This document shows positions 2-31,963 of a stretch of DNA of 32,000 bases, piece after piece. The stretch spans positions 1 to 32,000 of the forward strand of contig OW818675.1 of the NCBI GenBank assembly GCA_942493095.1, written 5' to 3'. The notes under the pieces are model-generated. The model saw nothing but the letters and a program-made list of their open reading frames with translations, had not been told where the DNA came from and did no database searches. Every line of letters starts with the position of its first letter. Position 1 is the first letter of the stretch. The position numbers and the translations under genes are program-made. The DNA is from Candidatus Electronema halotolerans. GTDB lineage: Bacteria; Desulfobacterota; Desulfobulbia; Desulfobulbales; Desulfobulbaceae.

Positions 2-1723
2 CTCTTTGCCCTGCTTTTCGGCGCAGCGGCAGAATGGCTGTTCTGGGACGAGTTCAGCACCCGCTTCAATTTCATTGCCGTGGATTACTTGGTCTATACG
101 GACGAGGTGATCGGCAATATCTGGGAATCCTATCCCATGCCTGCCATTTTGGCCGGGCTGCTGGCACTGTCAGCCCTGCTCCTCTTCCTGCTCTGGCAGA
201 CTGGTCTGCCAAAACTCTGGCTGGCTGGCGAGCATGAGTCCTTCCGGGGCCGTCTGCGCAACGGAGCTGTCTGGCTGACTGCTGTCCTCGTGCTCGGCCT
301 GACCGTCAGCTTGAATTGGCTGCCATCCTTTGCCAACAACTACAACCGCGAGCTGGCCCAGAACGGAGTTTGGTCCCTGTTTGCCGCCTTCCAAGCCAAC
401 CAGCTTGACTATGCCACCTTCTACACCTGCCTGCCGCACAAGCAGGCTCTGTCGCATCTCCAGAAAGAGCTGGTTGAGGACGGCTCAGTCCTGCTCAGAC
501 CGAATAAGAGCGACTCGCTGCGCTATGTCCGCAATGAAGGGCCGGAGCAACATCCCAACATCATTCAGATCACCGTGGAAAGCCTGAGCGCGGACTTTCT
601 CGGCGCGTGGAATCCTGCCTCTGACCTGACCCCGAATCTGGACGCGCTGGCCAAAAAGAGTCTGATCTTCACCCAGTTCTATGCCACCGGCACCCGCACC
701 GTGCGGGGCATGGAGGCGCTGACCCTGTCCCTGCCGCCCACGCCGGGCCGCTCAGTCCTGAAAAGGCCGCACAATGAGAACATGTTCACCTTTGGTTCTG
801 TGCTGCGCAGCAGAGGCTATGACACCGCCTTTCTTTACGGAGGCTTTGGCTATTTTGACAATATGAACTACTTCTTCGGCAATAACGGCTACCGGATTGT
901 TGACCGGGCCGCTGTCACGTCTGAAGATGTCACCTTTGCCAATATCTGGGGGGCCTGCGATCAGGATTTGTACCGCTGGACCATGCGGGAGGCGGACAAA
1001 GAGGCGGCGGCTGGCAAGCCCTTTCACTTCTTCCTCATGACCACTTCCAATCACCGGCCTTTCACCTTCCCGGACGGTCAGATTGATCTGCCGTCCAAAA
1101 CAGCAGGCCGCCAAGGCGGGGTCAAATATACAGATTACGCCATCGGCGAGTTCATCCGCAAGGCCTCGGCCAAGCCGTGGTTCAAGAACACCATCTTTGT
1201 GGTCGTGGCTGACCACTGCGCCTCAAGCGCGGGCAAGACCGAGCTGCCTGTGGCCAAATATCATATTCCCCTGCTGATCTATGCGCCGGGCGGCCAGATT
1301 GCCCCGGGCCGGAACCGCACCCTGATGAGCCAGATGGACTATGCTCCGACTCTGCTCGGCCTGCTCGGCTGGAGCTATCCCAGCCGTTTCTTTGGCCACG
1401 ATGTCCGCCGGATGCAATCTGCTGATGAGGCTCATGCCCTGATCGGCACCTATCAGAAACTCGGTCATCTGGAGGACGGCGAGCTGACCGTGCTTGCGCC
1501 CCGGCATATACAGTCTTTTTATACTGTTGATCTGGCCAGCGCAACCATGACTCCGCTCAAGAACGTGCCGCCGGAAGAGGAGAATGAGGCGATCAGCTAT
1601 TATCAGATGGCGGAGAGCATGTTCAATCAGCGCAGCTACAACGCGCTCAATGCGGCTGAGTTTGAACAGTGGGCCGAAAAGGGGGAGATGGTGACCTCTG
1701 CGAGAGTCTCCTGCCGTTTTTAA
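2..1723 (+). CDS. LtaS/MdoB-type sulfatase-like (alkaline-phosphatase superfamily) membrane transferase, 5' end cut by window edge
   Basis: The frame is open from nt 2 (LFALLFGAAAEWLFWDEFSTRFNFIAVDYLVYTDEV...), so the GTG at 80 in the ORF track is internal. Hydrophobic N-terminal segments are followed by a soluble domain with ITVESLSADFLG, YATGTRTVRGMEA, TSNHRPFTFPDG and FVVVADHCASSAGK. Stop TAA at 1721-1723. Confidence 0.8.
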   Translation, partial: LFALLFGAAAEWLFWDEFSTRFNFIAVDYLVYTDEVIGNIWESYPMPAILAGLLALSALLLFLLWQTGLPKLWLAGEHESFRGRLRNGAVWLTAVLVLGLTVSLNWLPSFANNYNRELAQNGVWSLFAAFQANQLDYATFYTCLPHKQALSHLQKELVEDGSVLLRPNKSDSLRYVRNEGPEQHPNIIQITVESLSADFLGAWNPASDLTPNLDALAKKSLIFTQFYATGTRTVRGMEALTLSLPPTPGRSVLKRPHNENMFTFGSVLRSRGYDTAFLYGGFGYFDNMNYFFGNNGYRIVDRAAVTSEDVTFANIWGACDQDLYRWTMREADKEAAAGKPFHFFLMTTSNHRPFTFPDGQIDLPSKTAGRQGGVKYTDYAIGEFIRKASAKPWFKNTIFVVVADHCASSAGKTELPVAKYHIPLLIYAPGGQIAPGRNRTLMSQMDYAPTLLGLLGWSYPSRFFGHDVRRMQSADEAHALIGTYQKLGHLEDGELTVLAPRHIQSFYTVDLASATMTPLKNVPPEEENEAISYYQMAESMFNQRSYNALNAAEFEQWAEKGEMVTSARVSCRF

Positions 1724-1762
1724 CGGCTCTGCATCAATCAAACAACATCAGGAGGAAGAATC

Positions 1763-2770
1763 ATGAACTGGCATGTTGCTGTCAACGGACAGACGCTTGG
1801 TCCTTTTCCGCAAAAGCAAATCGTGGCCGGGCTGCAGTCTGGTCAGTACAATCAAGCAACTATGGTCTGGCGGGAAGGCTTCAGCGACTGGCTGCCTGTG
1901 GCCCAAGTGCCGGAGCTGACCAATCCGAACGCAGCGGCGACAGCCCAGTCTGCGCCGCCACCTGCCATGTCTGGCTCCAGTGCGGATGAGATTGACTACG
2001 AAATTTTCGGTCATGAGATGCAGTTTGTCGAGATCGAGCTGGACCCGGAGGAAAGCGTGGTGGCCGAGGCGGGTGCTATGATGTACATGAGCGACAACAT
2101 CCAGATGCAGACCATTTTCGGCGACGGCTCGGCCTCCTCGCAGTCAGGCGGTTTTTTTGACAAGATGCTCGGCGCGGGCAAGCGGCTGATCACTGGCGAG
2201 AGCCTGTTCATGACCATGTTCACCTTCACCGGCTACGGCAAGGGCCGGGTCGCCTTTGCCGCCCCCTATCCAGGCAAGATCATTCCCCTTGATCTGCGCC
2301 GCTACAACGGGCGGATCATCTGTCAGAAAGATGCTTTTCTCTGCGCGGCCAAAGGTGTGGCTGTGGGCGTGGCCTTTCAAAAGCGGATCGGCACGGCCCT
2401 GTTCGGCGGCGAAGGCTTCATCATGCAGCGGCTGGACGGCGACGGCCTCTGCTTTGTTCATGCGGGTGGCACCATTGTCGAAAAACAGCTTGAAGCAGGC
2501 CAGAGCCTGCGGGTTGACACTGGCTGCCTTGTCGCCCTGACCCAGACCGTTCAGTATGACATTGAATTTGTCGGCGGGGTCAAGTCAGCCATCTTTGGCG
2601 GCGAAGGCTTCTTCTTTGCCAGCCTGCGCGGGCCAGGCCATGTCTGGCTCCAGTCCCTGCCCTTCTCGCGTCTGGCCGGACGCATCTTTGCCGCTGCACC
2701 CCAAGCTGGCGGCAAAAGCGTTGGCCAGGGTTCTGTGATCGGCAACCTTTCCACGCTCTTTGAACGATAG
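1763..2770 (+). CDS. GYF_2 (DUF4339-like) domain fused to AIM24/TIGR00266-family protein
   Basis: SD AGGAGGAA at 1750-1757 precedes the ATG at 1763. The N-terminus [13 protein letters not shown]...[13 protein letters not shown] is a GYF_2-type module. The rest ([64 protein letters not shown]) fits the AIM24/DUF124 family as I recall it. Confidence 0.7.
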
Positions 2771-2775
2771 CCCGG

Positions 2776-3264
2776 ATGTCCTTCCAACTGCGGAGCAGCA
2801 TCACTGCCGCCTATCTGTTCTGCCTCTACGCCAGTCTTGGCATTGCCCGGCCTGCGGCGGAATATCTGCGCGCCAGGAACCTGCTCCGACTGACCGTGCT
2901 GGCTCTGTTCACGCTTGCCCTGCCAGCCGTGCTGCGCTGGCGGGCTGCCGCCGCAGGCCGGACCAAGATGCTCCAGCGGCTGACCTTGGCTGCCTTGCTC
3001 CTGACAGCAGCGTTTGTTCTTGCCAAGACCCCGGAGGAGCGGCTTCATTTTCTCACCTACAGTCTCCTCGGCTGGCTGCTCGCCTGGAGTCTGGAAGAAA
3101 AAAAAGTCAGTCCGCTCCTGCCGCTGCTCTTGGTCTGGCTGGCCGGAACCGGTGACGAGCTGATTCAGGGCTGGCTGCCTGACCGCGTTTTTGATCTCCG
3201 CGACATTTTGTTCAACGGGCTGGCCGGAACAGTGGGAACAGCCCTGTTCGCCACAGGCTCATGA
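2776..3264 (+). CDS. VanZ-like membrane protein
   Basis: The ATG lies 5 nt after the preceding stop. The protein has several hydrophobic helices and the VanZ-type C-terminal pattern GDELIQGWLPDRVFDLRDILFNGLAGTVG. Confidence 0.6.
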   Translation: MSFQLRSSITAAYLFCLYASLGIARPAAEYLRARNLLRLTVLALFTLALPAVLRWRAAAAGRTKMLQRLTLAALLLTAAFVLAKTPEERLHFLTYSLLGWLLAWSLEEKKVSPLLPLLLVWLAGTGDELIQGWLPDRVFDLRDILFNGLAGTVGTALFATGS

Positions 3265-3322: not shown

Positions 3323-3351
3323 TTGATAATCCTGTCGTCCCGTGGTACAAT
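3323..3351 (+). promoter_or_regulatory. sigma70-type promoter TTGATA-N17-TACAAT for the AAA/FGE-fold operon
   Basis: TTGATA at 3323-3328, an exact 17-nt spacer, and TACAAT at 3346-3351, all in the 175-nt gap after the VanZ-like gene. The TTG that the ORF track uses as the start at 3323 is the -35 hexamer itself. Confidence 0.5.
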
Positions 3352-3439
3352 AACCTTTCAAACAGCGGTGAAACAGCTGTCCGCTGTGCAGGAAAATTTC
3401 AATCACGATCAGGAGCTGCCGCCTCAGTGCGGCTTGGAC

Positions 3440-4750
3440 ATGAACAACACCCCGCCTGTTTCCCGCAGAATACGGGTCGGCTGCCGGATCCGGCTCGAAG
3501 CGTATCAGTCATGGGAAGAAAGTTTCCATGTCTTTGATGAGGAATCTGCTTTAGCCGTGGAAATGGCCTTGGCTGCCGGACGGCCTCTGCTGGTGCGGGG
3601 CGAGCCGGGCAGCGGCAAGACCCAGCTGGCTCGTGCCGCCGCGCAGGAGCTGAACCGTCATTTCATGGCCCAGATCATCAACGGCTCTTCTGAGGGACAG
3701 GACTTGCTCTGGACCTACGATCCAGTGGCCCGGCTTCATGATGCCCAGACCTTGGCGGCAGAGGCGGCAGTTAAGGCGGTTCAGCAGGATTTGTCTGCGG
3801 ATGAAGAAGCGCAGGAGGCGGAAGGGCAGGACCAGTCTCAAGCCTCATCGGCAAGATCGGGCAGAAAAAAGACAGCCCGCTACCGCAGAAAAAAATCAGC
3901 CAAGCAGCAGCGCGGAGACCGTGAGCAGCTGTTCAAACTGCTCCGCAGCGGCACGGCGACTGGGTCAAATCGGAACTGTCCGCTGGAGCGAAGCTGCGGC
4001 GGCAGTCTTGATCCGGGCAGCTATGTCAGCCCCGGCATACTCTGGTGGGCTTTGGACTGCGTCTCAGCCCGGCGGCAGCATGAGCAGTGCCGCTGCCCCG
4101 GTTATCAGCCTGCCTTTGGCTGCTGTCCAGCCGGAGACATGGCGGCAGCGGAACTCTTGGCCGCAGCCCGGCGCGGCTTTGTTCTCCTGCTCGATGAAAT
4201 CGACAAGGCCGAAGCCTCCCTGCCCAATGCCCTGCTGGAGGTGCTGGGCAATGGCAGCTTTCAGGTGCCGCTGCTCAACCATCTGGTCACTGTGCCGCCG
4301 GGCCGGGAAAAGCCCTTGGTGATCATCACCACCAACGAGGAGCGGGAGCTGCCGCCCGCCTTTGTCCGCCGCTGCTTGGTTCTCAATCTTCGCTTTGATG
4401 ATGAGCGGCATCTGCGCAACTGGTGGAACAAGCAGGCATATCAGAACCCGAATGCGTACAGGGCGGATCAGTTTCAGCCGGACCGCGCCTTGATCGGCTG
4501 GCTGGCCGAGCGGGGTGAAGTGCATTTTGAGGGCTTTTTTACTGCCAAGGTCAGGGAGCGGGCTGCCGAGCTGCTGGTCAGGGACCGCCGGGAGGCCAAG
4601 CAGCTTGGCATGGTCAGACCGGGACAGGCCGAATATCTTGATCTGCTCCGCGCCCTGCGCGAGATGACCGCCCCAGAGGACAGCAGCCAGCAGCTTGCCC
4701 TGCTGGAGCGGATCAGTCCTTATGCCTTGGTCAAGCATCCGCTGGAATGA
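3440..4750 (+). CDS. MoxR/AAA_5-like AAA+ ATPase with a large insertion between Walker A and Walker B
   Basis: Walker A GEPGSGKT (3599-3622), Walker B VLLLDEIDKA (from 4181), then LVIITTNEERELPPAFVRRCLVLNL. The start is uncertain: the first ATG after the promoter is at 3440, there is an in-frame TTG at 3434, and no well-spaced SD. The stop overlaps the next start (ATGA at 4747-4750). Confidence 0.75.
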   Translation: MNNTPPVSRRIRVGCRIRLEAYQSWEESFHVFDEESALAVEMALAAGRPLLVRGEPGSGKTQLARAAAQELNRHFMAQIINGSSEGQDLLWTYDPVARLHDAQTLAAEAAVKAVQQDLSADEEAQEAEGQDQSQASSARSGRKKTARYRRKKSAKQQRGDREQLFKLLRSGTATGSNRNCPLERSCGGSLDPGSYVSPGILWWALDCVSARRQHEQCRCPGYQPAFGCCPAGDMAAAELLAAARRGFVLLLDEIDKAEASLPNALLEVLGNGSFQVPLLNHLVTVPPGREKPLVIITTNEERELPPAFVRRCLVLNLRFDDERHLRNWWNKQAYQNPNAYRADQFQPDRALIGWLAERGEVHFEGFFTAKVRERAAELLVRDRREAKQLGMVRPGQAEYLDLLRALREMTAPEDSSQQLALLERISPYALVKHPLE

Positions 4751-6789
4751 GCCGCACACAGCTTGTCAGCCAGGCTGATCTGCTCCGCCTGTTGGCCAGA
4801 CAGCCTGCTGCGCCGCTGACCGAGGCGGCCCGGCTGGTCGGATATCAGCCCCTATTGCCCACGCTTCTGCCAAAAGAAGAGGCTGCTTATGAAACTGCTC
4901 CTGCCACAGCCCAAGAACAGCAAGGTCTTGTTGAGCCGGTTTTCTGGCATTTAGCCCGGCGCGAGCCGCTGCACATTCGTCCCAGTCTCAAGCCTGCTGC
5001 TGGAGCGCAGAATCTGCCTGCGAAACTGCGGCATGTCCAGCCCTTGCGGGCGCAGGAGCTGCAATTCTCCGTTCCTGACCTGCTGGCGGAACAAGCTAGG
5101 CTGACTCTGCGGAAGCGGCAAAGCAAACAGAGAGCACTTGCCCAAGCAGTGCGCAGCGCGGCCCGGCTGCGGCCTTTGCCGTCACAACCGATTCAGCAAA
5201 GCGTCAAATATCAGCGGCTGGAGCGTCTGCCGCCGCCGGTGCGTGCGCTGGAGCTGCTCCGCCAAGGCGGGTTGCTGGAGCGCAGTCAGTGCGACTGGCT
5301 GGAGCGGTTCTTTCTCCGTCTGGCCCGGACGTGGCTTGACCGGCCCAAGAACGCGGAACTTCTCGATTATATCAACGAACTGCTGGAGCTGCTGCCAGAC
5401 AGCCTGCGCCGCCAGCAGGACGGCCCGGCCTTTCTCTATGGCATTGCTCATCGGGACGAGCTGCGGGCTGGAGCGACCATTCCGCAGCCATATCTGGCCG
5501 AGGCCATAGCAAGCATGATTCAGCAGCCGCTGCCTGCGTCAGAATGGCTGTTGGTGCAGAAGGGCGAGGAGCTGTTTCTGCTCAACAGCCCTGACAACGG
5601 CATCTGTTTGCTGCACGGCAGCCGGATCGGGGCTTTGCAGCTTGAGGCGGACCTGCTTCTCCTGCACCAAGGCGGGCAGACTGAGACTGCGCCGGTGCAG
5701 GAGGCAAAACCGATTTGCATTCTCAAGCGGGCCGAAACGGTCTGTCTGCAAAGCCAGAGCGAACAGCTCGTTATTCAGCCCTGCGCCAAACCGGCTTGGG
5801 CCGCCCTGATCGGCAGGAACAGCCGCGATCTCTTCGCCGAAGTGCTGTGGCTGGGCCGGAGCTGCCGCCTGCACTGGCAGATTCCTGCTGCAAACAGCCA
5901 AGGCCGCTGGCAGAGCTATGGCAGACCAGTGGATATGGACAGTTTCGGCCTTACGGCCTGCATCAGCTTTCAGGGCAAGGTGATGCAGCGGTTCCGCTGG
6001 CTGGAGCCGGGCCAGTTTTTCATGGGATCGCCAGAGGATGAGCCGGAACGGGAAATTTGGGGCAAGGAGACCCGGCATGAAGTGCATCTGAGCAAGGGCT
6101 TTTGGCTGGCAGACACGCCAGTCACGCAGGAGCTGTGGCAGTTTGTCATGCAGAACAATCCCTCGAAATTTCGCGGCAAAGATCATCCGGTTGACAGCGT
6201 GAGCTGGGAGGAGGTGCAGATTTTTCTCCAGCGGCTCAACGCCCTGCTGCCGGGCCTCAATGCCCGCCTGCCCTTTGAGGCGGAATGGGAATATGCCTGC
6301 CGGGCCGGGACCAGCACCGCCTTTGCCTTTGGCAGCCGGATCACGCCGGAGCAGGTCAACTATAACGGCCAGTTTCCGTGCAGTTGCGCGACAAAAGGGC
6401 TGTTCCGCCGCCGCACCGTGCCAGTGCGGAGTCTGCCAGCCAATGGCTGGGGTTTATACGAAATGCACGGCAATCTTTGGGAGTGGTGTCAGGACTGGTG
6501 GCTGGAGGATTTGGGGCCGGAACCTGCGCTTGATCCGCACGGGCCGGAACAGGGCGAATTTCGGGTTGTGCGGGGAGGCTCTTGGTTTCTTGGCGGCAAG
6601 GGGGTGCGCTCCGCAGTCCGGGGCAAGTTCGGGCCAGCAGATTTCGGCAGCGACCGGGTCGGCTTCCGCATTGCCTGCGCTCAGGAATCCGGCAGCAGAG
6701 AAGAACCGATTCCTGCGGCAAAAACAGACAGTAAACCAAAAAAGACAGGCGGCAGTCTGCTCAAGCGACTGCTGCGGTGGCGGCAATGA
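4747..6789 (+). CDS. 680-aa protein: unassigned N-terminal ~410 aa plus a C-terminal FGE/SUMF1-fold (formylglycine-generating-enzyme-like) domain
   Basis: C-terminal domain at about nt 5989-6678: RFRWLEPGQFFMGSPEDE, HEVHLSKGFWLADTPVTQELW, PVDSVSWEEVQIF, RLPFEAEWEYACRAG, WGLYEMHGNLWEWCQDWW, RVVRGGSW, RVGFRIA. I recognise no motif in the N-terminal part (Leu/Arg/Gln-rich). The start is coupled to the ATPase stop by ATGA. Confidence 0.8.
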   Translation: MSRTQLVSQADLLRLLARQPAAPLTEAARLVGYQPLLPTLLPKEEAAYETAPATAQEQQGLVEPVFWHLARREPLHIRPSLKPAAGAQNLPAKLRHVQPLRAQELQFSVPDLLAEQARLTLRKRQSKQRALAQAVRSAARLRPLPSQPIQQSVKYQRLERLPPPVRALELLRQGGLLERSQCDWLERFFLRLARTWLDRPKNAELLDYINELLELLPDSLRRQQDGPAFLYGIAHRDELRAGATIPQPYLAEAIASMIQQPLPASEWLLVQKGEELFLLNSPDNGICLLHGSRIGALQLEADLLLLHQGGQTETAPVQEAKPICILKRAETVCLQSQSEQLVIQPCAKPAWAALIGRNSRDLFAEVLWLGRSCRLHWQIPAANSQGRWQSYGRPVDMDSFGLTACISFQGKVMQRFRWLEPGQFFMGSPEDEPEREIWGKETRHEVHLSKGFWLADTPVTQELWQFVMQNNPSKFRGKDHPVDSVSWEEVQIFLQRLNALLPGLNARLPFEAEWEYACRAGTSTAFAFGSRITPEQVNYNGQFPCSCATKGLFRRRTVPVRSLPANGWGLYEMHGNLWEWCQDWWLEDLGPEPALDPHGPEQGEFRVVRGGSWFLGGKGVRSAVRGKFGPADFGSDRVGFRIACAQESGSREEPIPAAKTDSKPKKTGGSLLKRLLRWRQ

Positions 6790-7577
6790 TGTTTCAGGAT
6801 GTGCCTGCCCCATTTCCGCCGCCGTGGGCTTCCAGCTGGGGCGAGGATGCCTTGGGCCTCTGGCTGACCCTCAGCCAGCATGGCATCCGCCAGCTCTTCC
6901 GCTGGATCAGGCCCTGCAATTTTCTGATGGGCGCGCCGGACGAGGAGACTGCCGGACTGCATCTGCCGGGTCGGGAGACGCTGCATGAGGTGCGTCTGAG
7001 CAAAGGCTTCTGGCTGGCCGAGACAACCGTCACACAGGAACTCTGGCAGGCGGTCATGCACAGCAATCCCAGCGGCTTCAGCAGGCCGCAGCAGCCAGTA
7101 GAGCGGGTGAGCTGGGAGGATGCGCAGCTCTTTTTTCAACGGTTAAATGCCATGCTGCCAAAATTGCAAGCCCGCCTGCCCTTTGAGGCGGAATGGGAAT
7201 GCGCCTGCCGGGCTGGAAGCAGGACAGCTTTCTCCTTTGGCGAACAAATCAGGCCGGAGCAGGTCAATTTCAACACCTCCCTTGACGGCTGGGAGGAGCT
7301 GTACCGGCGCAGGACCGTGCCGGTGCGCAGTCTGCCTGCCAATGCTTGGGGTTTATACGAAATGCACGGCAATGTCTGGGAGTGGTGCCAAGACTGGTGG
7401 CAGGAGAATTTGGGCGCAGCAGCTGCTGCGAAGCCGCAGGGGCCGGAGCAATGTGACCTGCGGCCCGTGCGCGGCGGCTCCTGGGTCTGCGATGCCGCCT
7501 CTGTCCGCTCCGCCAGCCGCGACCGCTATCCTGCTGATTACCGGGGTGCCAGCATCGGTTTCAGGATTGCGGTGTGA
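6786..7577 (+). CDS. Stand-alone FGE/SUMF1-fold domain protein, paralog of the C-terminus of the preceding gene
   Basis: Same motif series: LFRWIRPCNFLMGAPDEE, HEVRLSKGFWLAETTVTQELW, RLPFEAEWECACRAG, WGLYEMHGNVWEWCQDWW, VRGGSW, IGFRIA. The ATG at 6786 overlaps the upstream TGA (ATGA at 6786-6789). The ORF track's GTG at 6777 is an alternative start. Confidence 0.8.
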   Translation: MMFQDVPAPFPPPWASSWGEDALGLWLTLSQHGIRQLFRWIRPCNFLMGAPDEETAGLHLPGRETLHEVRLSKGFWLAETTVTQELWQAVMHSNPSGFSRPQQPVERVSWEDAQLFFQRLNAMLPKLQARLPFEAEWECACRAGSRTAFSFGEQIRPEQVNFNTSLDGWEELYRRRTVPVRSLPANAWGLYEMHGNVWEWCQDWWQENLGAAAAAKPQGPEQCDLRPVRGGSWVCDAASVRSASRDRYPADYRGASIGFRIAV

Positions 7578-7586
7578 CGGCCCTGT

Positions 7587-8729
7587 TCACTGATTCAGCA
7601 GCAAATGGAGCGTGGCTTGCAAGGCCGGGTGAAATGAGGACGGCTGCGCAAAGTACGGCTGTAGAAAAGCCATTGCCGCTTGGTCCGGCCCTTGATCAGG
7701 CTGGCCTAAATTTGTCGGCTCAAGGGTGAATTGATAATCATCATCCCACCACGGGCCGCCAGCCCACCACGTCCAGCCAAGCCATACATCAGAATTTTCT
7801 TTGATATAGGTGAGCATGTTGTAAATGACCTCATCACCAATTTGGTCTTCTGCTGTGCCAATTGTGGAATTAGCCACGGCAAATTCAGCAAGAAAACCTT
7901 TGAAGTTGTGTTCTTTCAGCCAGTTGGTGAATTCCTCAAACTTCCATGTAATATAGGGATCATTGTTGCAAATTTCAGATGACTGGCCGGAGCTGTCACA
8001 ATCCATATACTGGTGAACTTCAAAGGCAAAATTGTTTTCCGAATCAACAATATTGAGCATGGCCTCAGAATTGGCACCATCATACCATGTTGCTGTCCAT
8101 GACCAAGCCCCGGTCCACCCGTTGCCGGGCACTAATATCAGATTTTTTGCTCCCGCATCACGAATAGCGGCAATGGCAGCATTTTCAGACGTGACCAATT
8201 GTGCTGTGGGCATGCTATTTGGTTCATTCATCAAACCAAAGATGACTTGGTTATTTTCTTTATAGTGACTGGCAAGTTTACTCCAGAAATCAGCAAACGC
8301 GGAATCTGGCACTTCATCGGTTCCGACCAGTCGCTTTTGGACATCATTTGAATCAGGATAGTATCGTTGATAATTATGAGGGTCAAGAATCACATAAGCA
8401 CCCTTTTCTGTCGCATAGTCAACAAAGGCATCCATCCGTGCCAGTTCGTCTGCATCCAATGCAGCATTCTGAGATTGTTGCAGCCGTTCCCAGCGAAAGG
8501 GCAGCCGAAAGGTGTTCATGCCTTTGCCGAGATAGTAATCAATCTCGGCAGAGTTTGGATATATGTAATCGGTGCCGTAGGTGCCGGGGAGATTGGAAGG
8601 GGTAGAGTCGGCACCGGATAAATTGATGCCGGTATATTTAATTTTTGCCTGCAAAATTGCTGGAAAAAACAGTAAGGCTGTGATCGTAAGCAATAAAAAC
8701 AATATCTGATGGAAGCTGCTTTTCTTCAC
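7587..8729 (-). CDS. Secreted glycoside hydrolase family 5 (cellulase/endoglucanase-like)
   Basis: GH5 pattern: TFRLPFRWERL, VILDPHNY, the acid/base motif FGLMNEPN, HQY, and the nucleophile context GFLAEFAV. I place the start at the GTG at 8729, because AAGGAG (complement of 8736-8741) lies 6 nt upstream and gives a classic signal peptide (V/M)KKSSFHQILFLLLTITALLFFPAILQA. The TTG at 8759 in the ORF track has no SD. GC is lower than the neighbours: sample lines count 21/60, 25/60 and 32/60. Confidence 0.8.
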   Translation of the reverse strand: MKKSSFHQILFLLLTITALLFFPAILQAKIKYTGINLSGADSTPSNLPGTYGTDYIYPNSAEIDYYLGKGMNTFRLPFRWERLQQSQNAALDADELARMDAFVDYATEKGAYVILDPHNYQRYYPDSNDVQKRLVGTDEVPDSAFADFWSKLASHYKENNQVIFGLMNEPNSMPTAQLVTSENAAIAAIRDAGAKNLILVPGNGWTGAWSWTATWYDGANSEAMLNIVDSENNFAFEVHQYMDCDSSGQSSEICNNDPYITWKFEEFTNWLKEHNFKGFLAEFAVANSTIGTAEDQIGDEVIYNMLTYIKENSDVWLGWTWWAGGPWWDDDYQFTLEPTNLGQPDQGPDQAAMAFLQPYFAQPSSFHPALQATLHLLLNQ

Positions 8730-9003
8730 TGAATTCTCCTTGTGTAAATGCGGATTCAAGTTGCAAGAGCAACGTTTGCTGATTTAAAAAGAACGAATTA
8801 CAGCAGGATGATAACCCGATTTTTGCAAAATAGCAAGAGGAGCGCAGAAAATCAACTTACCGAAACAAAACGTGACCAGATAGATGTACGCCTTGAGGCA
8901 GGCAGGATTGAAGCTGTCACGAAAATTTCCTGGCTTCATCACACCCAAAAAGCTATTCTTGAGAGTGAGTTAATCCGCAATCTCTGACCGCAACTGAACC
9001 ACC

Positions 9004-10679: not shown

Positions 10680-12221
10680 TCATATATCCTCCCTGACCAG
10701 AACCAGCTCGACCCGTGGCAGTCGGTATTCATAGGCCCGCTGCGACTCGCCGGGCTGCCGTGGCAGCGGCTGATTGCCGCCTAATCCCAGCGGACGCACC
10801 CGGTTCGGGTCAATATTATGGGTGATTTGAAGATAGCGGCTCACTGCCTCAGCCCGATCCTGCGACAGACGCAAATTCTCATTCGGGTCGCCGCGCAGGC
10901 CGGTGTGGCCTTTGATGACAATGCGGAAGTGCGGATAATGACTGAGCCGCTCCATAGCCGCATCAATGGTCTGCTTGCCAAGGATGTCCAAGGTCGAGGT
11001 GCCCTGCTGGAAGATGATCGGATCAAGCTTCAGGGTGCCCACTTCCTTGAGCGCAGCCCAGCCCGCGCTGTCCAAGGGAGCAAAGGTGGCTGCCGTGCTC
11101 TTGCCGCTCTTGGTGAAGCCGGTGCTGCCCTGAAACAGCTCCTCCAGAAAGCTGCGGTTGGTGAGCCGGTAGGGATTGCCATCAGGGATCGGGCTTGAAG
11201 CAAAGTCGCCCGCATTGACGAGAATGTCAGCCGTGGATTCAATCGCGGCAATAATGCCTTCCTCGCCCATGCCGCCTGTGGCAGTCAGGCCGAACCACTG
11301 CTCGCAGTTGTCCACGAGCGAGAGCCAGTTCACGCCCTTGAGCATGATGCGGGCCTGCTCCTCATCCAAGCCGGTTTCTTCGGTAAGATGGCGGACCAGC
11401 AGGGCTTGATCCTGGCGGTATTTCTTCAGGACCTTGAAATAGGTGTTGAGGAAGAGCTTGACTAACTGGGGATTCTTGTCGGCAAAGTCACGGCGGACAA
11501 GGAGGATGTCAACAATCAGCCGCTCCGTGTCCTCTGTGCCGAGCAGCTTGACAATGCCTTTGTTCTGGAGAGCCTGGGTCACATCCGGCTCCCAGAGCAC
11601 AGCCACATCCGCCTCGCCGGAGAGCAGAACTTTTTTGGCCTGCTCTGAGCCTTTGGTGGCAATGCGCAGCGGGCCGGGCGGCGGATGCAGCTCCGGGACA
11701 TTGAAGTGGTCAGCAGCAGCCTTGGCCAGATGCTCGCTGGGGCTGGCTGAAGTGAAGGCCACCTTGGCATCGAGCTTGCCCTTGAGCGCGTCAAGATTGG
11801 CCACCCGGTCTTTGCGGGCAAGGATGGCATCGCCGCCCTTGGATTCGTCAATGACCGCGACAATCACTGCCGGGTAGCTGAACTGCTTCGCATTGAGCAG
11901 GTACGAATCCACAGTGGCCACAGCAAAATCAAACTCGCCCTCGTCCAAGCGTTTCATGCGGCTCTGATAGTCAGCCTTGTCATCCTCATAAGCCAAGAGC
12001 CAGCCAGCCCGGTGCAGGGCGGTTTTCATCTCTGGCGAGCGGATGGGAAAATAGCCGATCCAATTATCCACAGCAAGGCGGAGCTTGCCTTGAGTTCCGG
12101 CGGCATCGCTGGTCGCCTCCTGCTGGCGGTCAAGCAGCACTGGCAGGAGCAGCCATATCCCGTAGGTGACACCCATGCCGAGCAGGAGCAGGAGCAGGGC
12201 GCCGATCAGTCTGTCCTTCAT
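10680..12221 (-). CDS. Membrane-anchored periplasmic-binding-protein-like domain fused to a C-terminal OmpA-like peptidoglycan-binding domain
   Basis: N-terminal TM helix LIGALLLLLLGMGVTYGIWLLLPVLL. An SBP-like region follows (LRLAVDNWIGYFPI..., FDFAVATVDSYLLNA, VIVAVIDESKGGDAIL). The C-terminus is OmpA-like: FRIVIKGHTGLRGDPNENLRLSQDRAEAVSRYL. The ATG overlaps the upstream stop (ATGA at 12218-12221). Confidence 0.75.
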   Translation of the reverse strand: MKDRLIGALLLLLLGMGVTYGIWLLLPVLLDRQQEATSDAAGTQGKLRLAVDNWIGYFPIRSPEMKTALHRAGWLLAYEDDKADYQSRMKRLDEGEFDFAVATVDSYLLNAKQFSYPAVIVAVIDESKGGDAILARKDRVANLDALKGKLDAKVAFTSASPSEHLAKAAADHFNVPELHPPPGPLRIATKGSEQAKKVLLSGEADVAVLWEPDVTQALQNKGIVKLLGTEDTERLIVDILLVRRDFADKNPQLVKLFLNTYFKVLKKYRQDQALLVRHLTEETGLDEEQARIMLKGVNWLSLVDNCEQWFGLTATGGMGEEGIIAAIESTADILVNAGDFASSPIPDGNPYRLTNRSFLEELFQGSTGFTKSGKSTAATFAPLDSAGWAALKEVGTLKLDPIIFQQGTSTLDILGKQTIDAAMERLSHYPHFRIVIKGHTGLRGDPNENLRLSQDRAEAVSRYLQITHNIDPNRVRPLGLGGNQPLPRQPGESQRAYEYRLPRVELVLVREDI

Positions 12222-12994
12222 GGCGCAAACGCAGCCGGATCAAAGGTTTCCGCCTCAGCCAAGACATCAGCCAGCCCTTGGCGCAGGGCGGCAGGATTGT
12301 CCGCCGCCTTATAGACCGTGCGGCCCGGCATGTTGAGGCTGTGGTTCGTGCCAATGCAGAAGCCGATGGTGTGCAGCTCCACTGGCGTGTTGTTCAGCAT
12401 CCAGTTGACTTTTGCCGCAGGATCCTGGTTGCCATCGGCCTGCCCGTCCGTGACCACCACCAGCACATAACGGCCATAGCCAAGCTGGCGCGCAGCCTGC
12501 TGTTCCAGATGCGCATAACCGGTGCTGATCGCATCTTTAAGCGGGGTGCCGCCGGAAGCAGAGGCGGACTGAACCGTCTCGGCAAACTGCTGCCGGTTGC
12601 CCGTGCCCAAGGGCACCAGCTCGTAAATCTTGCTGTTGGTGAAGAGGAGCAGGCCAAGGTTGGCATCTGCCGGAACATTGGCGGCAAACTCTTTGAGCGC
12701 ATCCTTGGCTGTTTCAAGTTTGCTTTGCCTGCCAGAACACTGGTTGTCCTGCATGGAGCCGCTGCCGTCCAAGACCACATAGTAATTGGCGGCCAGCAGG
12801 TTCTTGGCCAAATGCACCTCTCCCTGCGGCGCAGGCGGCCAAGCCTTGCCAGCAGAATTCAGTGCATTTGCTGTCTTAGTCGTAGTTGCAGGCAAACTGC
12901 GCTGCTGTTTTTTCGGTGGTGGCGGTGAATCCTTGCAAGCGGTCAATCCGCCGAACAGCAGGACGGCCAGCAAGGTTGCTGCAATGCGTTTCAT
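12218..12994 (-). CDS. von Willebrand factor A (vWA) domain lipoprotein
   Basis: Signal peptide plus lipobox MKRIAATLLAVLLFGGLTAC. MIDAS motif YYVVLDGSGSM, later GGTPL and VLVVVTDGQADG. I prefer the ATG at 12994, which has SD GGGAGAG upstream, over the GTG at 13012 in the ORF track. Confidence 0.8.
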   Translation of the reverse strand: MKRIAATLLAVLLFGGLTACKDSPPPPKKQQRSLPATTTKTANALNSAGKAWPPAPQGEVHLAKNLLAANYYVVLDGSGSMQDNQCSGRQSKLETAKDALKEFAANVPADANLGLLLFTNSKIYELVPLGTGNRQQFAETVQSASASGGTPLKDAISTGYAHLEQQAARQLGYGRYVLVVVTDGQADGNQDPAAKVNWMLNNTPVELHTIGFCIGTNHSLNMPGRTVYKAADNPAALRQGLADVLAEAETFDPAAFAP

Positions 12995-13008
12995 TCTTCT
13001 CTCTCCCT

Positions 13009-14721
13009 TCACAACGGCGTGAAAACAGAAGTTTCAGCCTCAAGCTGGAGGATGCGGAACTCAACCCGCATGTTGTCGCGCCACTCCTGCTCCGTCTTAG
13101 GAGCGCACGGCTCGCTGCCGCAGATGCCGGTCTTGGGCTTGGCAATGCCGTGGCCCACGACGGCGAACTGGCTTTCATCCAAGGTGATGCCCTTGGCCGC
13201 AGCAAAGGCGATGATGCTGTCGCGCACGGCATTGGCCCGCGACAGACTGAGATTCTTGGCTGCCTGCTTGATCTGCTTGAGCACCATCTCGGTGGCATTG
13301 TTCTTCTTTGCCTTGAGATATCCAAGCGGGTCAGAATGCCCTTCAATGGTGATCACTGCGCCGCCGTAGGTGCTGGCCAGCTCAATCACCTTGCTGAAGG
13401 CATCCGCATACAGGTCCGCAGCGAACTGGTTCTGATTGGGCTGGAAAAAGACCTCAAAGGAGAACAGCTCGCCTTGGCTCAGGGTGCCCTGCTGCTGCTT
13501 GCGCTGGATCACGCCTGCCACCTTGGCAGTGTCAAACTTGGGCACAGCCACGCCCGCTATATTGCTCAGACCTTGTTTCAGGGTATTGTAATCAAAACTC
13601 GCCGCTGCAAACGGAGTCTGCTTGCCGAGCAGGCCGAGCGTGACAAAGGCGCTTTGAATCTGCTTCTGGAGCTTGTCGAAGTTGCGCGGATAGTTCTTGT
13701 CAGTGAAGAACTTGACATTGCCGGGAAAGCCGACAAATTCGCAGTCTGCATGGAGCGATTCCGCATCAGCAGTCGCTGCCGGACTGTCGAGCAGTATCTG
13801 GGCTGAAGCCTTGATCATGGCGGTGTAGTCCTTCATCCGGCTGCTCTTGTCTTTGAACAAGGCGGTGAGCTGCTCCTCGCCCTGCATCAGGCCGTTGACA
13901 AACTGCTCCACCTCGCTGCGATGGGCCTTGAAGTAATCAGAACGCACAGCATAGACATCAGCAATGACCCGGTTGGCGGTTTTGGTGGAAAGCATGATCT
14001 CCGCCCCTTTGACCGAGCCTTCCGCGCCTGTGCCGACCGTGCCGCCAGAGGTCAGGGCCAGTCCGTCCGGGATGATCATCATGGCCGCGTCAATGCCCTG
14101 ATCGCGGAAGGCCTCTGCCGGAGTCTCATCCGTGCCGGTCAAATCCTTGACCCATTTGATGGTCACATCCTTCATGGTCAGCCCGGCATCGGCGAGCACT
14201 GTGGCCAGATAATCAGCATGCGGGCCGTAGGCTTGCAGGGCCACGGTCTTGCCTTTCAGGTCCTTGGCCGTCTTGATGCCCGGCTTGACCACCAGACAGT
14301 CGCCGCCGTTTGACCACGTGAGCTGATAAATAATCACTGGCGCGGTGCGCGGGTCACGGGCAAGCACCTCGGCGGCCATGCCGACCATGCCGAGCGTGCC
14401 GCGCAGATAGGGTGTTTCGCCGCGCAGGTAGGCTTCGACCTGCTTTTTAAAGTCATCCTCGCGCACCAGGTGCAGATTCAGCCCTTTTTTGGCAAAAATG
14501 CTGCCCGGCGCAGTCTTGACCGCATTGCCGTTGGCAAGGATGGTGGCTTCGTCGCCGCCCCACGTGATGAGCGGCACTTGCACCGCCGCTCCTGCTTTAA
14601 CCTCTCCAGCCGGAGCAGTGATGACCTTGGCCAATGGCGGCGATTCAACATACTGCACGGCTTGGGCCGCAGTGCCGCAGAGCGCAAGGCAGATGCAGAG
14701 CAACTGCGCAATTTTTTTCAT
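13009..14721 (-). CDS. Secreted periplasmic-binding-protein-like domain fused to a C-terminal OmpA-like domain
   Basis: The ATG at 14721 has SD GGGAGA 7 nt upstream and gives the signal peptide MKKIAQLLCICLALCGTAAQA. The 57 codons upstream in the ORF track run into the repeat array. SBP-like region: LKGKTVALQAYGPHADYLA... OmpA-like C-terminus: VITIEGHSDPLG...LSLSRANAVRDSI...VEFRI. Confidence 0.75.
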   Translation of the reverse strand: MKKIAQLLCICLALCGTAAQAVQYVESPPLAKVITAPAGEVKAGAAVQVPLITWGGDEATILANGNAVKTAPGSIFAKKGLNLHLVREDDFKKQVEAYLRGETPYLRGTLGMVGMAAEVLARDPRTAPVIIYQLTWSNGGDCLVVKPGIKTAKDLKGKTVALQAYGPHADYLATVLADAGLTMKDVTIKWVKDLTGTDETPAEAFRDQGIDAAMMIIPDGLALTSGGTVGTGAEGSVKGAEIMLSTKTANRVIADVYAVRSDYFKAHRSEVEQFVNGLMQGEEQLTALFKDKSSRMKDYTAMIKASAQILLDSPAATADAESLHADCEFVGFPGNVKFFTDKNYPRNFDKLQKQIQSAFVTLGLLGKQTPFAAASFDYNTLKQGLSNIAGVAVPKFDTAKVAGVIQRKQQQGTLSQGELFSFEVFFQPNQNQFAADLYADAFSKVIELASTYGGAVITIEGHSDPLGYLKAKKNNATEMVLKQIKQAAKNLSLSRANAVRDSIIAFAAAKGITLDESQFAVVGHGIAKPKTGICGSEPCAPKTEQEWRDNMRVEFRILQLEAETSVFTPL

Positions 14722-14802
14722 GATAAAATCTCCCTTGAGTTGGATGCAGGTGCATTCCCAGTTTTGGGCAGCTTCGCATGAATGACAGAGTATGTCAAGT
14801 TT

Positions 14803-14831
14803 TTTATAAGAGGAATTGCGAGTTTGGGCAA
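14803..14831 (-). promoter_or_regulatory. Possible sigma70-type promoter TTGCCC-N17-TATAAA for the envelope operon
   Basis: On the minus strand, TTGCCC is the complement of 14826-14831, the spacer is 17 nt, and TATAAA is the complement of 14803-14808. It lies about 80 nt upstream of the ATG at 14721 and directly abuts the repeat array. Confidence 0.3.
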
Positions 14832-14834
14832 CCG

Positions 14835-15087
14835 GTTCATGCCCATAGTCCAGAAAGTTCCATGCACATGAACCGGAGCGTTCCATGCACATACACCCGA
14901 CTCGTCCATGTGCTTAGGCGAGGTTCATCTATGTGCTTATGCGAGACCCATCTATGTACATAGTTCTGATTCCCCCATGCACATAGATGCCGGACGACCA
15001 TGTGCATGGATGAAAAAGTTCCATGCACGGTGGTCGGTTTTCCCATTGTGCGCATGGAGGGGCGGTTCATGAACCGCCCCTACGCCT
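14835..15087. repeat. Eleven degenerate tandem units in exact 23-bp register, conserved core YCATGYRC (often CCATG-YR-CATGG)
   Basis: The 8-mers at 14837, 14860, 14883, 14906, 14929, 14952, 14975, 14998, 15021, 15044 and 15067 are TCATGCCC, CCATGCAC, CCATGCAC, CCATGTGC, CTATGTGC, CTATGTAC, CCATGCAC, CCATGTGC, CCATGCAC, CATTGTGC and TCATGAAC. The linker sequence between cores is not conserved. Confidence 0.8.
15059..15080 (-). other. Perfect 22-nt palindrome GGGGCGGTTCATGAACCGCCCC touching the NACHT stop codon
   Basis: The sequence is self-complementary over all 22 nt (a 9-bp GC-rich stem with a 4-nt loop as RNA). Its last base is the first base of the complement of the TAG at 15080-15082. 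No U-tract follows on the minus strand, so it is not a canonical intrinsic terminator. Confidence 0.5.
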
Positions 15088-28957: not shown

Positions 28958-30313
28958 ATGTTTGACAATCTTACTGAACGCCTTGAAGGAGTTTTCAAAA
29001 AGCTGCGCGGTCATGGCAGGCTGACTGAAGCCAATATTGAAGAGGCCATGCGCGAGGTGCGCACAGCCCTGCTGGAAGCGGATGTCAACCTTCAAGTGGT
29101 CAAGGATTTTGTCGCCTCAGTCACGGCCAAGGCCATTGGCCAGGAGGTGCTGACCAGTCTGGCTCCGGGCCAGCAGGTCATCAAGGTCGTGTATGAGGAG
29201 CTGGTCACCCTACTTGGTTCTTACGCCGAGCCGCTGCGGCTGGACGGACGGCAGCCAGTCCTGATCATGATGGCTGGTCTGCAAGGTTCAGGCAAGACCA
29301 CCACTTCGGCCAAGCTGGCCCGCCTGCTCAAGGAGAAAGGCCGCAAGCCCTTTCTCGTGCCTGCGGATGTCTATCGTCCGGCAGCCATTGACCAGCTCCA
29401 TGTGCTGGGCGAGCAGATTGGGGTGCCGGTTTTTGCCTCCACGGTTACGCAGAAGCCTGCGGACATTGCCCGCCAAGCTGAGGCGCAGGCCAAGGCCGAA
29501 GGTTATGACACGCTGATTCTTGACACAGCAGGCCGTCTTCATGTTGATGAGGAGCTGATGGCCGAGCTGCAAGAGATTGCCAAAACCGTGCCGCTGACTG
29601 AGGTGCTCTTTGTCGCCGATGCCATGACCGGCCAGGACGCAGTGGCCGTGGCAGCCAAATTCAGCAGCGATTTGGACATCACCGGCGTGATCCTGACCAA
29701 GATGGAGGGCGATGCCCGTGGCGGCGCGGCCCTGTCGGTCAATCAGGTCACAGGCAGGCCGATCAAGTTTGTCGGCATCGGTGAAGGCTTGGACGCGCTG
29801 GAAATTTTCCATCCAGACCGGGCCGCCTCCCGCATCCTCGGCATGGGCGATGTCCTCTCCCTGATCGAGAAGGCGGAAAAGGTTGTTGACGAGAAAAAGG
29901 CCAGGCAGTTAGCCAGCAAACTGCGCAAGAATACCTTCACGCTCGATGATTTTTTAGAGCAGCTCCAGCATATTAAGAAAATGGGCAGCATGGAGCAACT
30001 CATGAGCATGGTGCCGGGCATCAGCAAGCTCAAGCAGCTCAAGGATGCGCCCCAGCCCAGCGAGAAGGAGCTGTTCAAGACTGAGGCCATCATCCTCTCC
30101 ATGACGAAGAAGGAGCGGGCCAATTACAAAGTTATCAATGCCAGCCGCAGAATCCGCATTGCTGCCGGCTCCGGCACCACCGTGGCAGAGGTCAACCGGG
30201 TGCTGAAAAGCTACACCATGATGCTCAAAATGATGAAAAAAATCAGTGGCAAAGCGGCAGTGGTCAAAGATGGCCAACGGCGTAAGCTGCCCAAAGGCCT
30301 GCGTCGCCGCTGA
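28958..30313 (+). CDS. ffh: Signal recognition particle protein
   Basis: MFDNLTERLEGVFKKLRG..., GTPase motifs GLQGSGKTTT, DTAGRL and TKMEGDARGG, and a Met-rich M domain (MGSMEQLMSMVPG ... MMLKMMKK). I take the ATG at 28958 rather than the GTG at 28952. Confidence 0.95.
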   Translation: MFDNLTERLEGVFKKLRGHGRLTEANIEEAMREVRTALLEADVNLQVVKDFVASVTAKAIGQEVLTSLAPGQQVIKVVYEELVTLLGSYAEPLRLDGRQPVLIMMAGLQGSGKTTTSAKLARLLKEKGRKPFLVPADVYRPAAIDQLHVLGEQIGVPVFASTVTQKPADIARQAEAQAKAEGYDTLILDTAGRLHVDEELMAELQEIAKTVPLTEVLFVADAMTGQDAVAVAAKFSSDLDITGVILTKMEGDARGGAALSVNQVTGRPIKFVGIGEGLDALEIFHPDRAASRILGMGDVLSLIEKAEKVVDEKKARQLASKLRKNTFTLDDFLEQLQHIKKMGSMEQLMSMVPGISKLKQLKDAPQPSEKELFKTEAIILSMTKKERANYKVINASRRIRIAAGSGTTVAEVNRVLKSYTMMLKMMKKISGKAAVVKDGQRRKLPKGLRRR

Positions 30314-30364
30314 AAAACTACAACTCAGGGAACTGTTGATACCGACAAATACTCTGAGCCTGTC

Positions 30365-30379
30365 AAAAGGTGGCCTTTT
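30365..30379 (+). terminator. Small hairpin AAAAGG-tgg-CCTTTT after ffh
   Basis: A 6-bp stem with a 3-nt loop, 52 nt after the ffh stop and 25 nt before the next ATG. It is weak (AT-rich stem, short T-run). Confidence 0.25.
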
Positions 30380-30403
30380 CTGCTCTATAACAGGAGAAAG
30401 AAC

Positions 30404-31858: not shown

Positions 31859-31963
31859 CAGAATAATAATTACAGATAGTTGACAGGCGACAAGCCCTCC
31901 CTAATGGAGGACTATCCACTATATCATTACCGGAACATCTTATTCACAGGAGACAAGAAAAAA

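Follow-up and report, generated by a model that had tools for sequence, protein, structure and literature searches.

A three-gene MoxR-like ATPase and lectin-fold operon of cable bacteria and its relatives among retroelement-diversified conflict systems

What is the function of an operon that joins an ATPase to two proteins with the fold of an enzyme and encodes no recognizable effector? The question is raised by positions 3,323 to 7,577 of a 32,000-nucleotide stretch of DNA (hereafter the window; contig OW818675.1, assembly GCA_942493095.1) from the filamentous cable bacterium Candidatus Electronema halotolerans. Three co-directional genes on the forward strand stand here behind one promoter. 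They encode a MoxR-like AAA+ ATPase, a 680-amino-acid (aa) protein that ends in a formylglycine-generating enzyme (FGE) domain, and a 263-aa protein that consists of the FGE domain only. A preliminary description of the sequence put this triad forward as a candidate undescribed sensor system. The operon is less novel than that, as comparative genomics has already described systems of its kind (Kaur et al. 2020; Doré et al. 2024). In our judgment it is probably a descendant, free of reverse transcriptase (RT) and effector, of the MoxR-like-ATPase/C-type-lectin conflict systems that are diversified by clade-5A diversity-generating retroelements (DGRs), and would serve as an ATP-driven binder or sensor of fixed specificity.

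The triad and its relatives in retroelement loci

The features of the operon, by position and strand, are:

3323..3351, +: sigma-70-type promoter TTGATA-N17-(TG)GTACAAT, with 10/12 consensus positions and an extended -10 element
3352..3439, +: 5' leader, with AGGAG at ~3411 and a short GCCGC/GCGGC hairpin ahead of the start codon
3440..4750, +: gene 1, MoxR-like AAA+ ATPase, 436 aa (Pfam AAA_5, 1.8e-14)
3599..3622, +: Walker A motif GEPGSGKT, aa 54-61 (G54, E55, P56, G57, G59 and K60 invariant)
3761..4006, +: Lys/Arg-rich insertion in the ATPase, ~80-90 aa (…RKKTARYRRKKSAKQQR…), in the cable-bacterial clade only
4181..4204, +: Walker B motif VLLLDEID, aa 248-255 (D252, E253, I254 and D255 invariant)
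4747..6789, +: gene 2, homologue of the 'long target' of DGR loci, 680 aa (Pfam FGE-sulfatase at aa 418-643, 2.3e-43)
4747..4851, +: N-terminal motif of gene 2, aa 1-35, VSxADLLRLL…GY, common to the long targets of DGR loci
5227..5997, +: alpha-helical and all-beta module of gene 2, aa 161-417 (predicted local distance difference test score, pLDDT, ~90; no fold relative known)
5998..6675, +: FGE/C-type-lectin-fold domain of gene 2, aa 418-643, non-catalytic (Pfam and structural match)
6583..6666, +: variable-region equivalent of gene 2, aa 613-640, WFLGGKGVRSAVRGKFGPADFGSDRVGF, aligning to the variable region (VR) and template repeat (TR) of loci L008 and L005
6786..7577, +: gene 3, homologue of the 'short target', FGE fold only, 263 aa (Pfam FGE-sulfatase at aa 42-262, 5.6e-46)
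7482..7562, +: variable-region equivalent of gene 3, aa 233-259, aligning to the VR and TR of L008 and L005

The product of gene 1 is 100% identical to Ca. Electronema halotolerans protein P0121 and belongs to a large family of ~320-aa 'MoxR-like' proteins. It had been described as a MoxR/AAA_5-type ATPase on the basis of its motifs, and the Pfam match and the presence of these motifs bear this out. The motifs GEPGSGKT, VLLLDEID and TTNEERELPPAFVRRC are invariant family-wide, and an alignment of 24 members shows that the Walker A, Walker B, sensor-1 and Arg motifs are invariant together with TTNEERELPPAFxRRC. The closest solved sequence is the AAA ring of Midasin (profile search, 2.7e-15). Gene 1 has the AAA_5-type core in common with Midasin/Rea1 and the MoxR-class AAA+ proteins; it differs in being a single-module protein of 436 aa with no detected partner that carries a von Willebrand factor A (vWA) domain or metal ion-dependent adhesion site (MIDAS). 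It is sub-threshold for Pfam AAA_3 and bpMoxR. An identity as NCBIfam MadB_ATPase was rejected, as the score was 73 bits against a cut-off of 475 and a literature search for MadB retrieved unrelated papers only.

The core of clade-5A DGRs consists of a MoxR-like ATPase followed by a long target, which has an unannotated N-terminal extension and a C-terminal C-type-lectin/FGE fold (Doré et al. 2024, PNAS, PMC10907252). These loci, exemplified by DGR8 of Thiohalocapsa PB-PSB1, also encode a second, short target with the lectin fold only and have genes for Trypco1/2, TIR or trypsin- or caspase-like peptidases nearby; systems of this type are enriched in multicellular and filamentous bacteria (Doré et al., PMC10907252). 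The relatives of the gene 1 ATPase sit in such DGR loci, a connection that was not seen in the preliminary description. Examples of the clade-5A type identified here are L095, L008/L009, L005-L007, L013 and L026, and three of them are organized as follows:

L005-7, Accumulibacter: TIR_2 protein of 480 aa, ATPase, FGE protein of 1014 aa, HRDC, RVT_1, FGE protein of 296 aa
L008/9, Desulfosarcina: Trypco1, Trypsin_2 protein of 501 aa, ATPase, FGE protein of 988 aa, HRDC, RVT_1, FGE protein of 282 aa
L095: Trypco1, trypsin, ATPase (P0172), FGE protein of 940 aa, HRDC, RT, TR

The ATPases of these loci are 44-48% identical to gene 1, and P0172 is the closest one from outside the cable bacteria (48%). 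L005-7 and L008/9 contain a three-copy repeat, with a VR in the long gene, a TR after the RT gene and a VR in the short gene. Mismatches between TR and VR fall on template adenines in 10/11, 15/16, 11/14 and 15/16 cases in these loci, and in 16/21 cases in L095. L005-7 and L008/9 are bona fide DGRs.

The likeness of the triad to clade-5A loci extends over all three genes. The ATPases are orthologous, with 39-48% identity and all motifs in common, and the order of ATPase, long target and short target is the same. Gene 2 shares with the long target the VSxADLLRL motif, the alpha/beta module and the C-terminal FGE fold, although its extension is shortened, and gene 3 resembles the short target in having the FGE fold only. 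Homology and gene order are shown by these comparisons. In contrast to clade-5A loci, the triad has no RT, HRDC or template repeat and no Trypco, TIR or peptidase effector gene upstream. In addition, ~280 aa of the long target are deleted, the loops are conserved rather than hypervariable, and the ATPase carries insertions. The composition had previously been called undescribed; this view is superseded, as an ATPase with a long and a short FGE protein is the stated clade-5A core (Doré et al.) and the closest relative, L095, is a locus of this kind.

The FGE domains lead to the same relatives. Gene 3, whose product is 100% identical to a Ca. Electronema halotolerans protein, shares 49-53% identity with the short targets in the DGR loci L008 and L005, and gene 2 is 42% identical to the bona fide DGR target of L008 over aa 332-646. 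The FGE domains of the two genes are paralogues (59% aa identity, 76-80% DNA identity); together with the Pfam match, this agrees with the initial view of gene 3 as the same domain standing alone. In structure, the gene 2 domain comes closest to TvpA, a DGR variable protein (2y3c, E 2e-10), and then to human FGE (Foldseek, ~4e-10) and PvdO; TvpA is also its best profile match (1.6e-46). TvpA (Treponema denticola variable protein 1, PDB 2Y3C) is a DGR-diversified lipoprotein. GGSW and GFR flank its variable loop, as they do the loops of the window proteins. It differs from the window proteins, which are cytoplasmic by sequence and have fixed loops, and we know of no ATPase partner of TvpA.

Both FGE folds have the fold and many scaffold residues in common with FGE (SUMF1) and PvdO, but lack the catalytic Cu-binding Cys pair (human Cys336/Cys341). 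In gene 2, RGGSWFLGGKGVRSA contains no Cys. In gene 3, one Cys aligns with FGE Cys336, and the second site falls inside a 3-residue deletion. The NCBIfam matches of both proteins are all far under their cut-offs, with PvdO, for example, scoring 68-93 bits against 500. The missing Cys pair and the match to TvpA suggest that the two folds are binders rather than enzymes, and the binding-module reading given in the preliminary description was well founded in this respect. In public databases, gene 3 is named 'Serine/threonine-protein kinase pkn1' and gene 2 'formylglycine-generating enzyme required for sulfatase activity'. These names are misleading because the proteins are DGR-target-type lectin folds without the Cys pair.

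The region that precedes the FGE domain in gene 2 had been reported as ~410 aa with no assignable motif; Pfam agrees, with no match in aa 1-417. The AlphaFold model of the protein (pLDDT 75) predicts short N-terminal helices, a disordered linker, an all-alpha region at aa 112-258, an all-beta region at aa 261-418 and the FGE fold. Structure and profile searches of gene 2, as the preliminary description had suggested, matched the FGE fold; when modeled on their own (pLDDT 78), the N-terminal 420 aa matched nothing in either PDB or BFVD, the best E values being 0.2 and 0.15. A phmmer search with the alpha/beta module against 1.84 billion representatives retrieved only 37 clusters, in which the module always lies just N-terminal of a C-terminal FGE domain. 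The N-terminal region appears to be a module specific to such long targets, to which nothing further is assigned. Its first 35 residues are a candidate docking peptide for the ATPase, with a mean pairwise identity of 0.76 among cable orthologues and a ratio of nonsynonymous to synonymous substitution rates (dN/dS) of ~0.1.

No Pfam VWA match was found in gene 2 or, at E<=1, in 34 long targets, and the gene 2 model has no alpha/beta Rossmann-like domain. A hidden vWA domain in the long targets was looked for further and not found: a PDB profile search matched the FGE domain only, and hhalign against the vWA protein of the window gave 0.2% probability. Canonical long targets (L008 aa ~130-400, L005, L014 and others) have a conserved beta-alpha-beta-like region of ~270 aa, with …VLLID…R..PF..D… and …LIISDLG…, in which the Asp residues are nearly invariant; this region is deleted in the window protein. 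It may be a vWA-like domain without MIDAS, which sequence methods leave unconfirmed.

A second known group is the VMAP-MoxR-vWA ternary conflict systems, which have a strict gene order and in which FGS (FGE) domains occur as DGR-diversified modules (Kaur, Burroughs, Iyer and Aravind, eLife 2020, PMC7159879). These systems and the canonical relatives of the triad both combine a variable effector protein, a MoxR-like ATPase and a large protein that sometimes ends in FGS and is sometimes DGR-diversified. One canonical relative even carries Pfam TCAD9, the 'ternary complex associated domain 9'. The link to NTP-dependent conflict systems with FGS domains, drawn in the preliminary description, holds. 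The triad differs from these systems in that the operon has no detectable vWA component or VMAP gene, and in that its ATPase has two partners, both with a lectin fold.

Losses and frozen loops in cable bacteria

Outside the cable bacteria, a co-oriented gene lies directly upstream of the ATPase in all of the 14 loci examined and encodes a protein of 460-770 aa. Its head is recognizable in 12 of the 14 (TIR/SEFIR, trypsin, PNP_UDP_1, TCAD9 or DUF676 esterase); the proteins of L023 and L097 yielded no domain. A C-terminal module is common to the trypsin and TIR proteins that were compared (L008 aa 226-500, L005 aa 203-469). In cable bacteria, no effector-type gene precedes the ATPase (window, L001, L010), and tblastn at E<=1 found no RT, HRDC, Trypco or effector module in the window, L001, L002 or L010. 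Likewise, the open reading frames (ORFs) of the window include no Pfam RVT match, and a repeat search and a low-stringency blastn search of the window with both 3' ends yielded no third VR or template-repeat copy, only the paralogy of genes 2 and 3. Gene 3 follows gene 2 directly, with no cassette between them. Canonical long targets have ~270-280 aa between the VSxADLLRL motif and the alpha/beta module, a segment that is deleted in gene 2 and degenerate in Electrothrix.

In a neighbor-joining (NJ) tree of the ATPases, the cable clade and L095 (Trypco1, trypsin, RT) group with 100% bootstrap support and are nested inside effector-bearing systems. Because of this nesting, the differences of the cable version are losses, and its missing effector is derived rather than primitive. 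The operon has neither a vWA gene (Pfam) nor an effector gene (tblastn), as noted from the start. Loci with no RT within +-10 kb occur outside the cable bacteria too, among others in Thiothrix, Nitrosomonas, Holophagae and planctomycetes, but they retain the effector. The cable version is distinguished by having none.

The cable ATPases also carry insertions. The Lys/Arg-rich insertion is present in the ATPases of Electronema and Electrothrix and, in the alignment, missing from all DGR-linked relatives, including the sister L095/P0172. A second insertion of ~30 aa is found in cable ATPases, and P0172 has one of the two cable-type insertions.

The loops that correspond to the variable regions of DGR targets behave differently inside and outside the cable clade. 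In gene 2, mean identity among 16 cable orthologues is 0.81 in the loop versus 0.77 in the FGE core, whereas the same columns in non-cable relatives are hypervariable and scrambled at template-Asn positions. For gene 3, identity in loop versus core is 0.59 versus 0.63 in the cable clade and 0.43 versus 0.66 in non-cable relatives. The gene 2 loop has an omega (dN/dS) of 0.16-0.32 relative to the two closest orthologues, and the gene 3 loop has dN = 0 relative to L093 and L094 at dS 0.23-0.38; taken together, the two loops show dN of 0 to 0.05 at dS 0.10-0.38. The binding loops are frozen and under purifying selection. They are also poor in adenine compared with the core (0.12 versus 0.19 in gene 2, 0.10 versus 0.20 in gene 3), and the DNA similarity of the two genes breaks off right at the VR boundary, where a Trp codon begins the loop (6585/7484). 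The adenine-poor loops and this break in similarity are what would be expected of former VRs and suggest, short of proof, such an origin.

Selection extends to the whole genes. The dN/dS values are 0.06-0.09 for gene 1, 0.10-0.28 for gene 2 and ~0.15 for gene 3, so that all three genes, at 0.06-0.28, are under purifying selection.

Some further variation was observed among the non-cable relatives. The upstream gene has swappable heads, including PNP_UDP_1, SEFIR, TCAD9 and DUF676 esterase, in L013, L014, L015, L017-L019, L021-L023 and L032, and in L021 the TIR domain is C-terminal instead of N-terminal. Arrays of 76-124-nucleotide repeats, tandem or dispersed, lie beside the ATPase/FGE systems of a Holophagae metagenome-assembled genome (MAG; L017, 15260-17268) and of Algibacillus agarilyticus (L032, 7225-7717 and 13626-16073). 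The DGR part of L016 (Accumulibacter meliphilus, 13636-17652) looks rearranged, with duplicated HRDC fragments and several VR/TR-like copies, and tblastn found no intact RT in that locus.

Operon structure, conservation and neighborhood

The statements made earlier about the promoter, the gene junctions and the end of the operon are accurate throughout. The promoter is the best of 5 promoter-like sites in 6.7 kb, compared with 1.7 sites in shuffled sequence. The -35 hexamer and TGGTACAAT are invariant across four orthologous loci at a coding dS of up to >1.6; in the window, L093, L094 and L002, the hexamers are unchanged while flanking non-coding and synonymous sites have diverged, the latter to saturation. 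The 3' half of the leader is kept in L094 and L002. A role of the leader hairpin as a structural element was rejected, as its predicted fold is not stabler than those of shuffled sequences (z = -0.12), and no Rfam family or tRNA was found in the window. Genes 1 and 2 overlap in ATGA (gene 1 end 4750, gene 2 start 4747), as do genes 2 and 3 (gene 2 end 6789, gene 3 ATG 6786). Gene 3 ends at 7577 and a convergent ORF ends at 7587, which leaves a gap of 9 nucleotides.

The ORF list that accompanied the preliminary description was in error at the start of gene 1. The listed start, TTG 3323, is the -35 hexamer itself, and the true start is ATG 3440 (436 aa). GenBank annotates a GTG start at 3368 (the 460-aa P0121). 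We place the start at ATG 3440 because a 10-nucleotide indel in L093 and L094 breaks the frame from GTG 3368 while GGACATGAACAA stays conserved.

The triad is a conserved neighborhood, a property whose verification the preliminary description had called for. It is found in the same order in the window, in Electronema sp. PJ (L001), in L002, L093 and L094 (Electronema-type contigs or MAGs) and in Electrothrix communis (L010), and it occupies at least three unrelated genomic contexts across the two genera. Each protein has named orthologues in many assemblies of Electronema and Electrothrix, with ~50-60% identity across the genera, and full-length gene 2 orthologues are confined to cable bacteria. 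This distribution rests on protein searches and six loci. In the cable-bacteria literature searched, there was no mention of the triad genes, DGRs or MoxR.

The neighbors of the triad vary from locus to locus. Upstream in the window (80-3264, +) lie genes for a sulfatase, a GYF_2+AIM24 fusion and a VanZ-like protein. This trio also precedes the triad in L002 and L093; only GYF-AIM24 and VanZ were seen upstream in L094, and none of the three in L001 or L010. The convergent gene (7587-8759, -) encodes a GH5 cellulase (Pfam 3.6e-55) with a hydrophobic leader. With 44% GC in a region of ~60% GC, it appears to have been inserted recently by horizontal transfer; its position is occupied in L002 and L094 by a gene for a dCache-PAS hybrid histidine kinase. 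An 870-aa NLR-like STAND protein with NNH3, NACHT and pentapeptide repeats (15080-17692, -) is not kept beside the triad in other cable loci. The preliminary description had offered this gene and the low-GC gene as relevant context; both are uninformative on the triad because they are not conserved with it.

A three-gene block (10680-14892, -) encodes an OmpA-C and periplasmic-binding-like protein, a 264-aa vWA protein and an NMT1/OmpA-C protein. The vWA gene is the sole one of the window, is unrelated to the triad and is not conserved with it. At 30300-32000, GC content drops to 35-43%, and a 484-aa ORF at 30404-31858 has no Pfam match. A 483-aa gene downstream of the triad in L001 was considered as a relative of this ORF and proved to be unrelated.

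Mechanism, alternatives and significance

A mechanism can be outlined for a descent of the triad from clade-5A systems. The canonical order is an effector-adaptor (TIR, trypsin, PNP, TCAD9 or esterase head with a common C-terminal module), the ATPase, the long FGE target, HRDC, RT, TR and the short FGE target, and the retroelement rewrites the ligand-binding loop of both targets. The cable lineage would have shed the effector gene and the HRDC-RT-TR cassette, and its long target ~280 aa; the two loops were frozen and subsequently held by purifying selection. The two non-catalytic FGE folds may bind one fixed ligand. A hexamer of the ATPase would engage the long protein, probably via the N-terminal VSxADLLRL peptide, and drive its remodeling or oligomerization with ATP. 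As no executioner domain is left, the output could lie in sequestering or neutralizing the ligand, in signaling to a partner whose gene is elsewhere, or in a function of the clade-specific Lys/Arg-rich insertion. The sensor/ATPase part of this mechanism we infer from architecture, because the literature turned up no experimental study of any family member, canonical or derived. The binder or sensor reading of the preliminary description survives at that level, through the Cys-less FGE folds and their best match to TvpA.

Several points weigh against descent by loss. The NJ tree is simple, and the position of L095 relative to Electrothrix has 68% support. There is no RT within +-10 kb in the non-cable loci L014, L015, L017-L019, L021, L022 and L032, so retroelement loss may be recurrent, or DGRs may have been recruited to an ATPase/FGE/FGE core that already existed. 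The NNC codons of the loops and their adenine depletion are suggestive and do not prove past DGR mutagenesis. The search for RT and effector covered 32 kb of a 3.2-Mb genome, and an effector-adaptor or RT may be encoded elsewhere. Finally, the defense-island setting that had been proposed for examination was not borne out. The window otherwise contains housekeeping genes (ffh, ptsI, hcp and one for an aminotransferase) and is not a defense island. PADLOC-DB v2 returned no system match for the triad: genes 2 and 3 matched nothing, and the matches of gene 1 were weak and limited to the P-loop region (mad8, TRIP13, IetA; E 3e-5 or weaker).

A more specific version of descent from clade-5A systems is put forward tentatively. 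The cable clade as a whole may have domesticated a hypermutating receptor, with retroelement and suicide effector discarded, one 'snapshot' per loop fixed and the core of ATPase and two lectin folds kept for hundreds of millions of generations as a germline-encoded, ATP-driven recognition device of innate type; as part of the same possible scenario, the ligand would be conserved and specific to the lineage, either a persistent parasite or a component of the self filament, and the Lys/Arg-rich insertion would be the replacement output.

The alternative that fares best is that the triad was co-opted from conflict to cable-specific housekeeping, for example as an ATP-dependent chaperone or assembly device whose lectin folds recognize a self filament molecule. 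We consider this rather unlikely, even though it would fit the presence of the triad in apparently all sampled Electronema and Electrothrix genomes, the strong purifying selection on the genes and their loops, the loss of a suicide effector and the clade-specific ATPase insertions. The neighbors also suit it, with thiamine genes in L010 and ffh and ptsI in the window, but no neighbor gene has a conserved functional link to the triad. All three proteins lack signal peptides by sequence, which makes a direct role in the periplasmic conductive fibers unlikely, and every relative with an interpretable context is a conflict-type locus. On sequence evidence, the present role may be either defense or a co-opted one specific to cable bacteria.

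A complete defense system, with the effector-adaptor and possibly the retroelement encoded elsewhere and acting in trans, is improbable. DGRs can act on remote targets, several non-cable loci keep the effector without an RT within +-10 kb, and only 32 kb of the 3.2-Mb genome are visible. However, diversification in trans is contradicted by the conserved loops, with a dN of 0 in that of gene 3, and the effector gene is directly upstream and co-oriented in 14/14 non-cable loci, in keeping with the strict order of the analogous ternary systems (Kaur et al., PMC7159879).

It is very improbable that genes 2 and 3 are true enzymes of the FGE/EgtB/PvdO type that serve the sulfatase at 80-1723, with the ATPase as activase. 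The sulfatase does lie 1.6 kb upstream, as in L002, and both proteins belong by Pfam and NCBIfam to the FGE/PvdO/EgtB superfamily. Yet two unrelated genes and the triad's own promoter intervene, the linkage is missing in L001 and L010, and the nearest relatives are DGR variable proteins; membership in a characterized FGE-type metabolic family, the case which the preliminary description had named against itself, is ruled against by the missing Cys pair and the NCBIfam scores far below cut-off. That the triad is merely what is left of a dismantled DGR locus, decaying and without function, is equally hard to uphold, since the loss of RT, template repeat, effector and part of the long target is set against intact frames, dN/dS of 0.06-0.28, invariant ATPase motifs, a conserved promoter and retention over two genera at ~50-60% identity.

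DGR-diversified MoxR/lectin-fold systems have been proposed as 'antigen sensors' of multicellular bacteria. What is new in the cable-bacterial version is the lack of a retroelement and of an effector, the truncated long target, the frozen loops and the ATPase insertions; this version is mentioned neither in Kaur et al. 2020 or Doré et al. 2024 nor in the cable literature searched. Its fixed loops and lack of a toxic effector make it a simpler and safer entry point to such systems, as a ligand pull-down is feasible and the interaction of ATPase and target could be reconstituted without cell death. The operon corrects the annotations 'formylglycine-generating enzyme' and 'Ser/Thr kinase Pkn1', and extends the short list of genes common to cable bacteria, apparently to all those sampled, by a conserved module of three genes that had been left without annotation. 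It also documents the fate of such systems after retroelement loss, namely purifying selection on a single specificity. If the domestication of a hypermutating receptor is true, this would be a prokaryotic case of an adaptive-type receptor reverting to an innate, fixed specificity.

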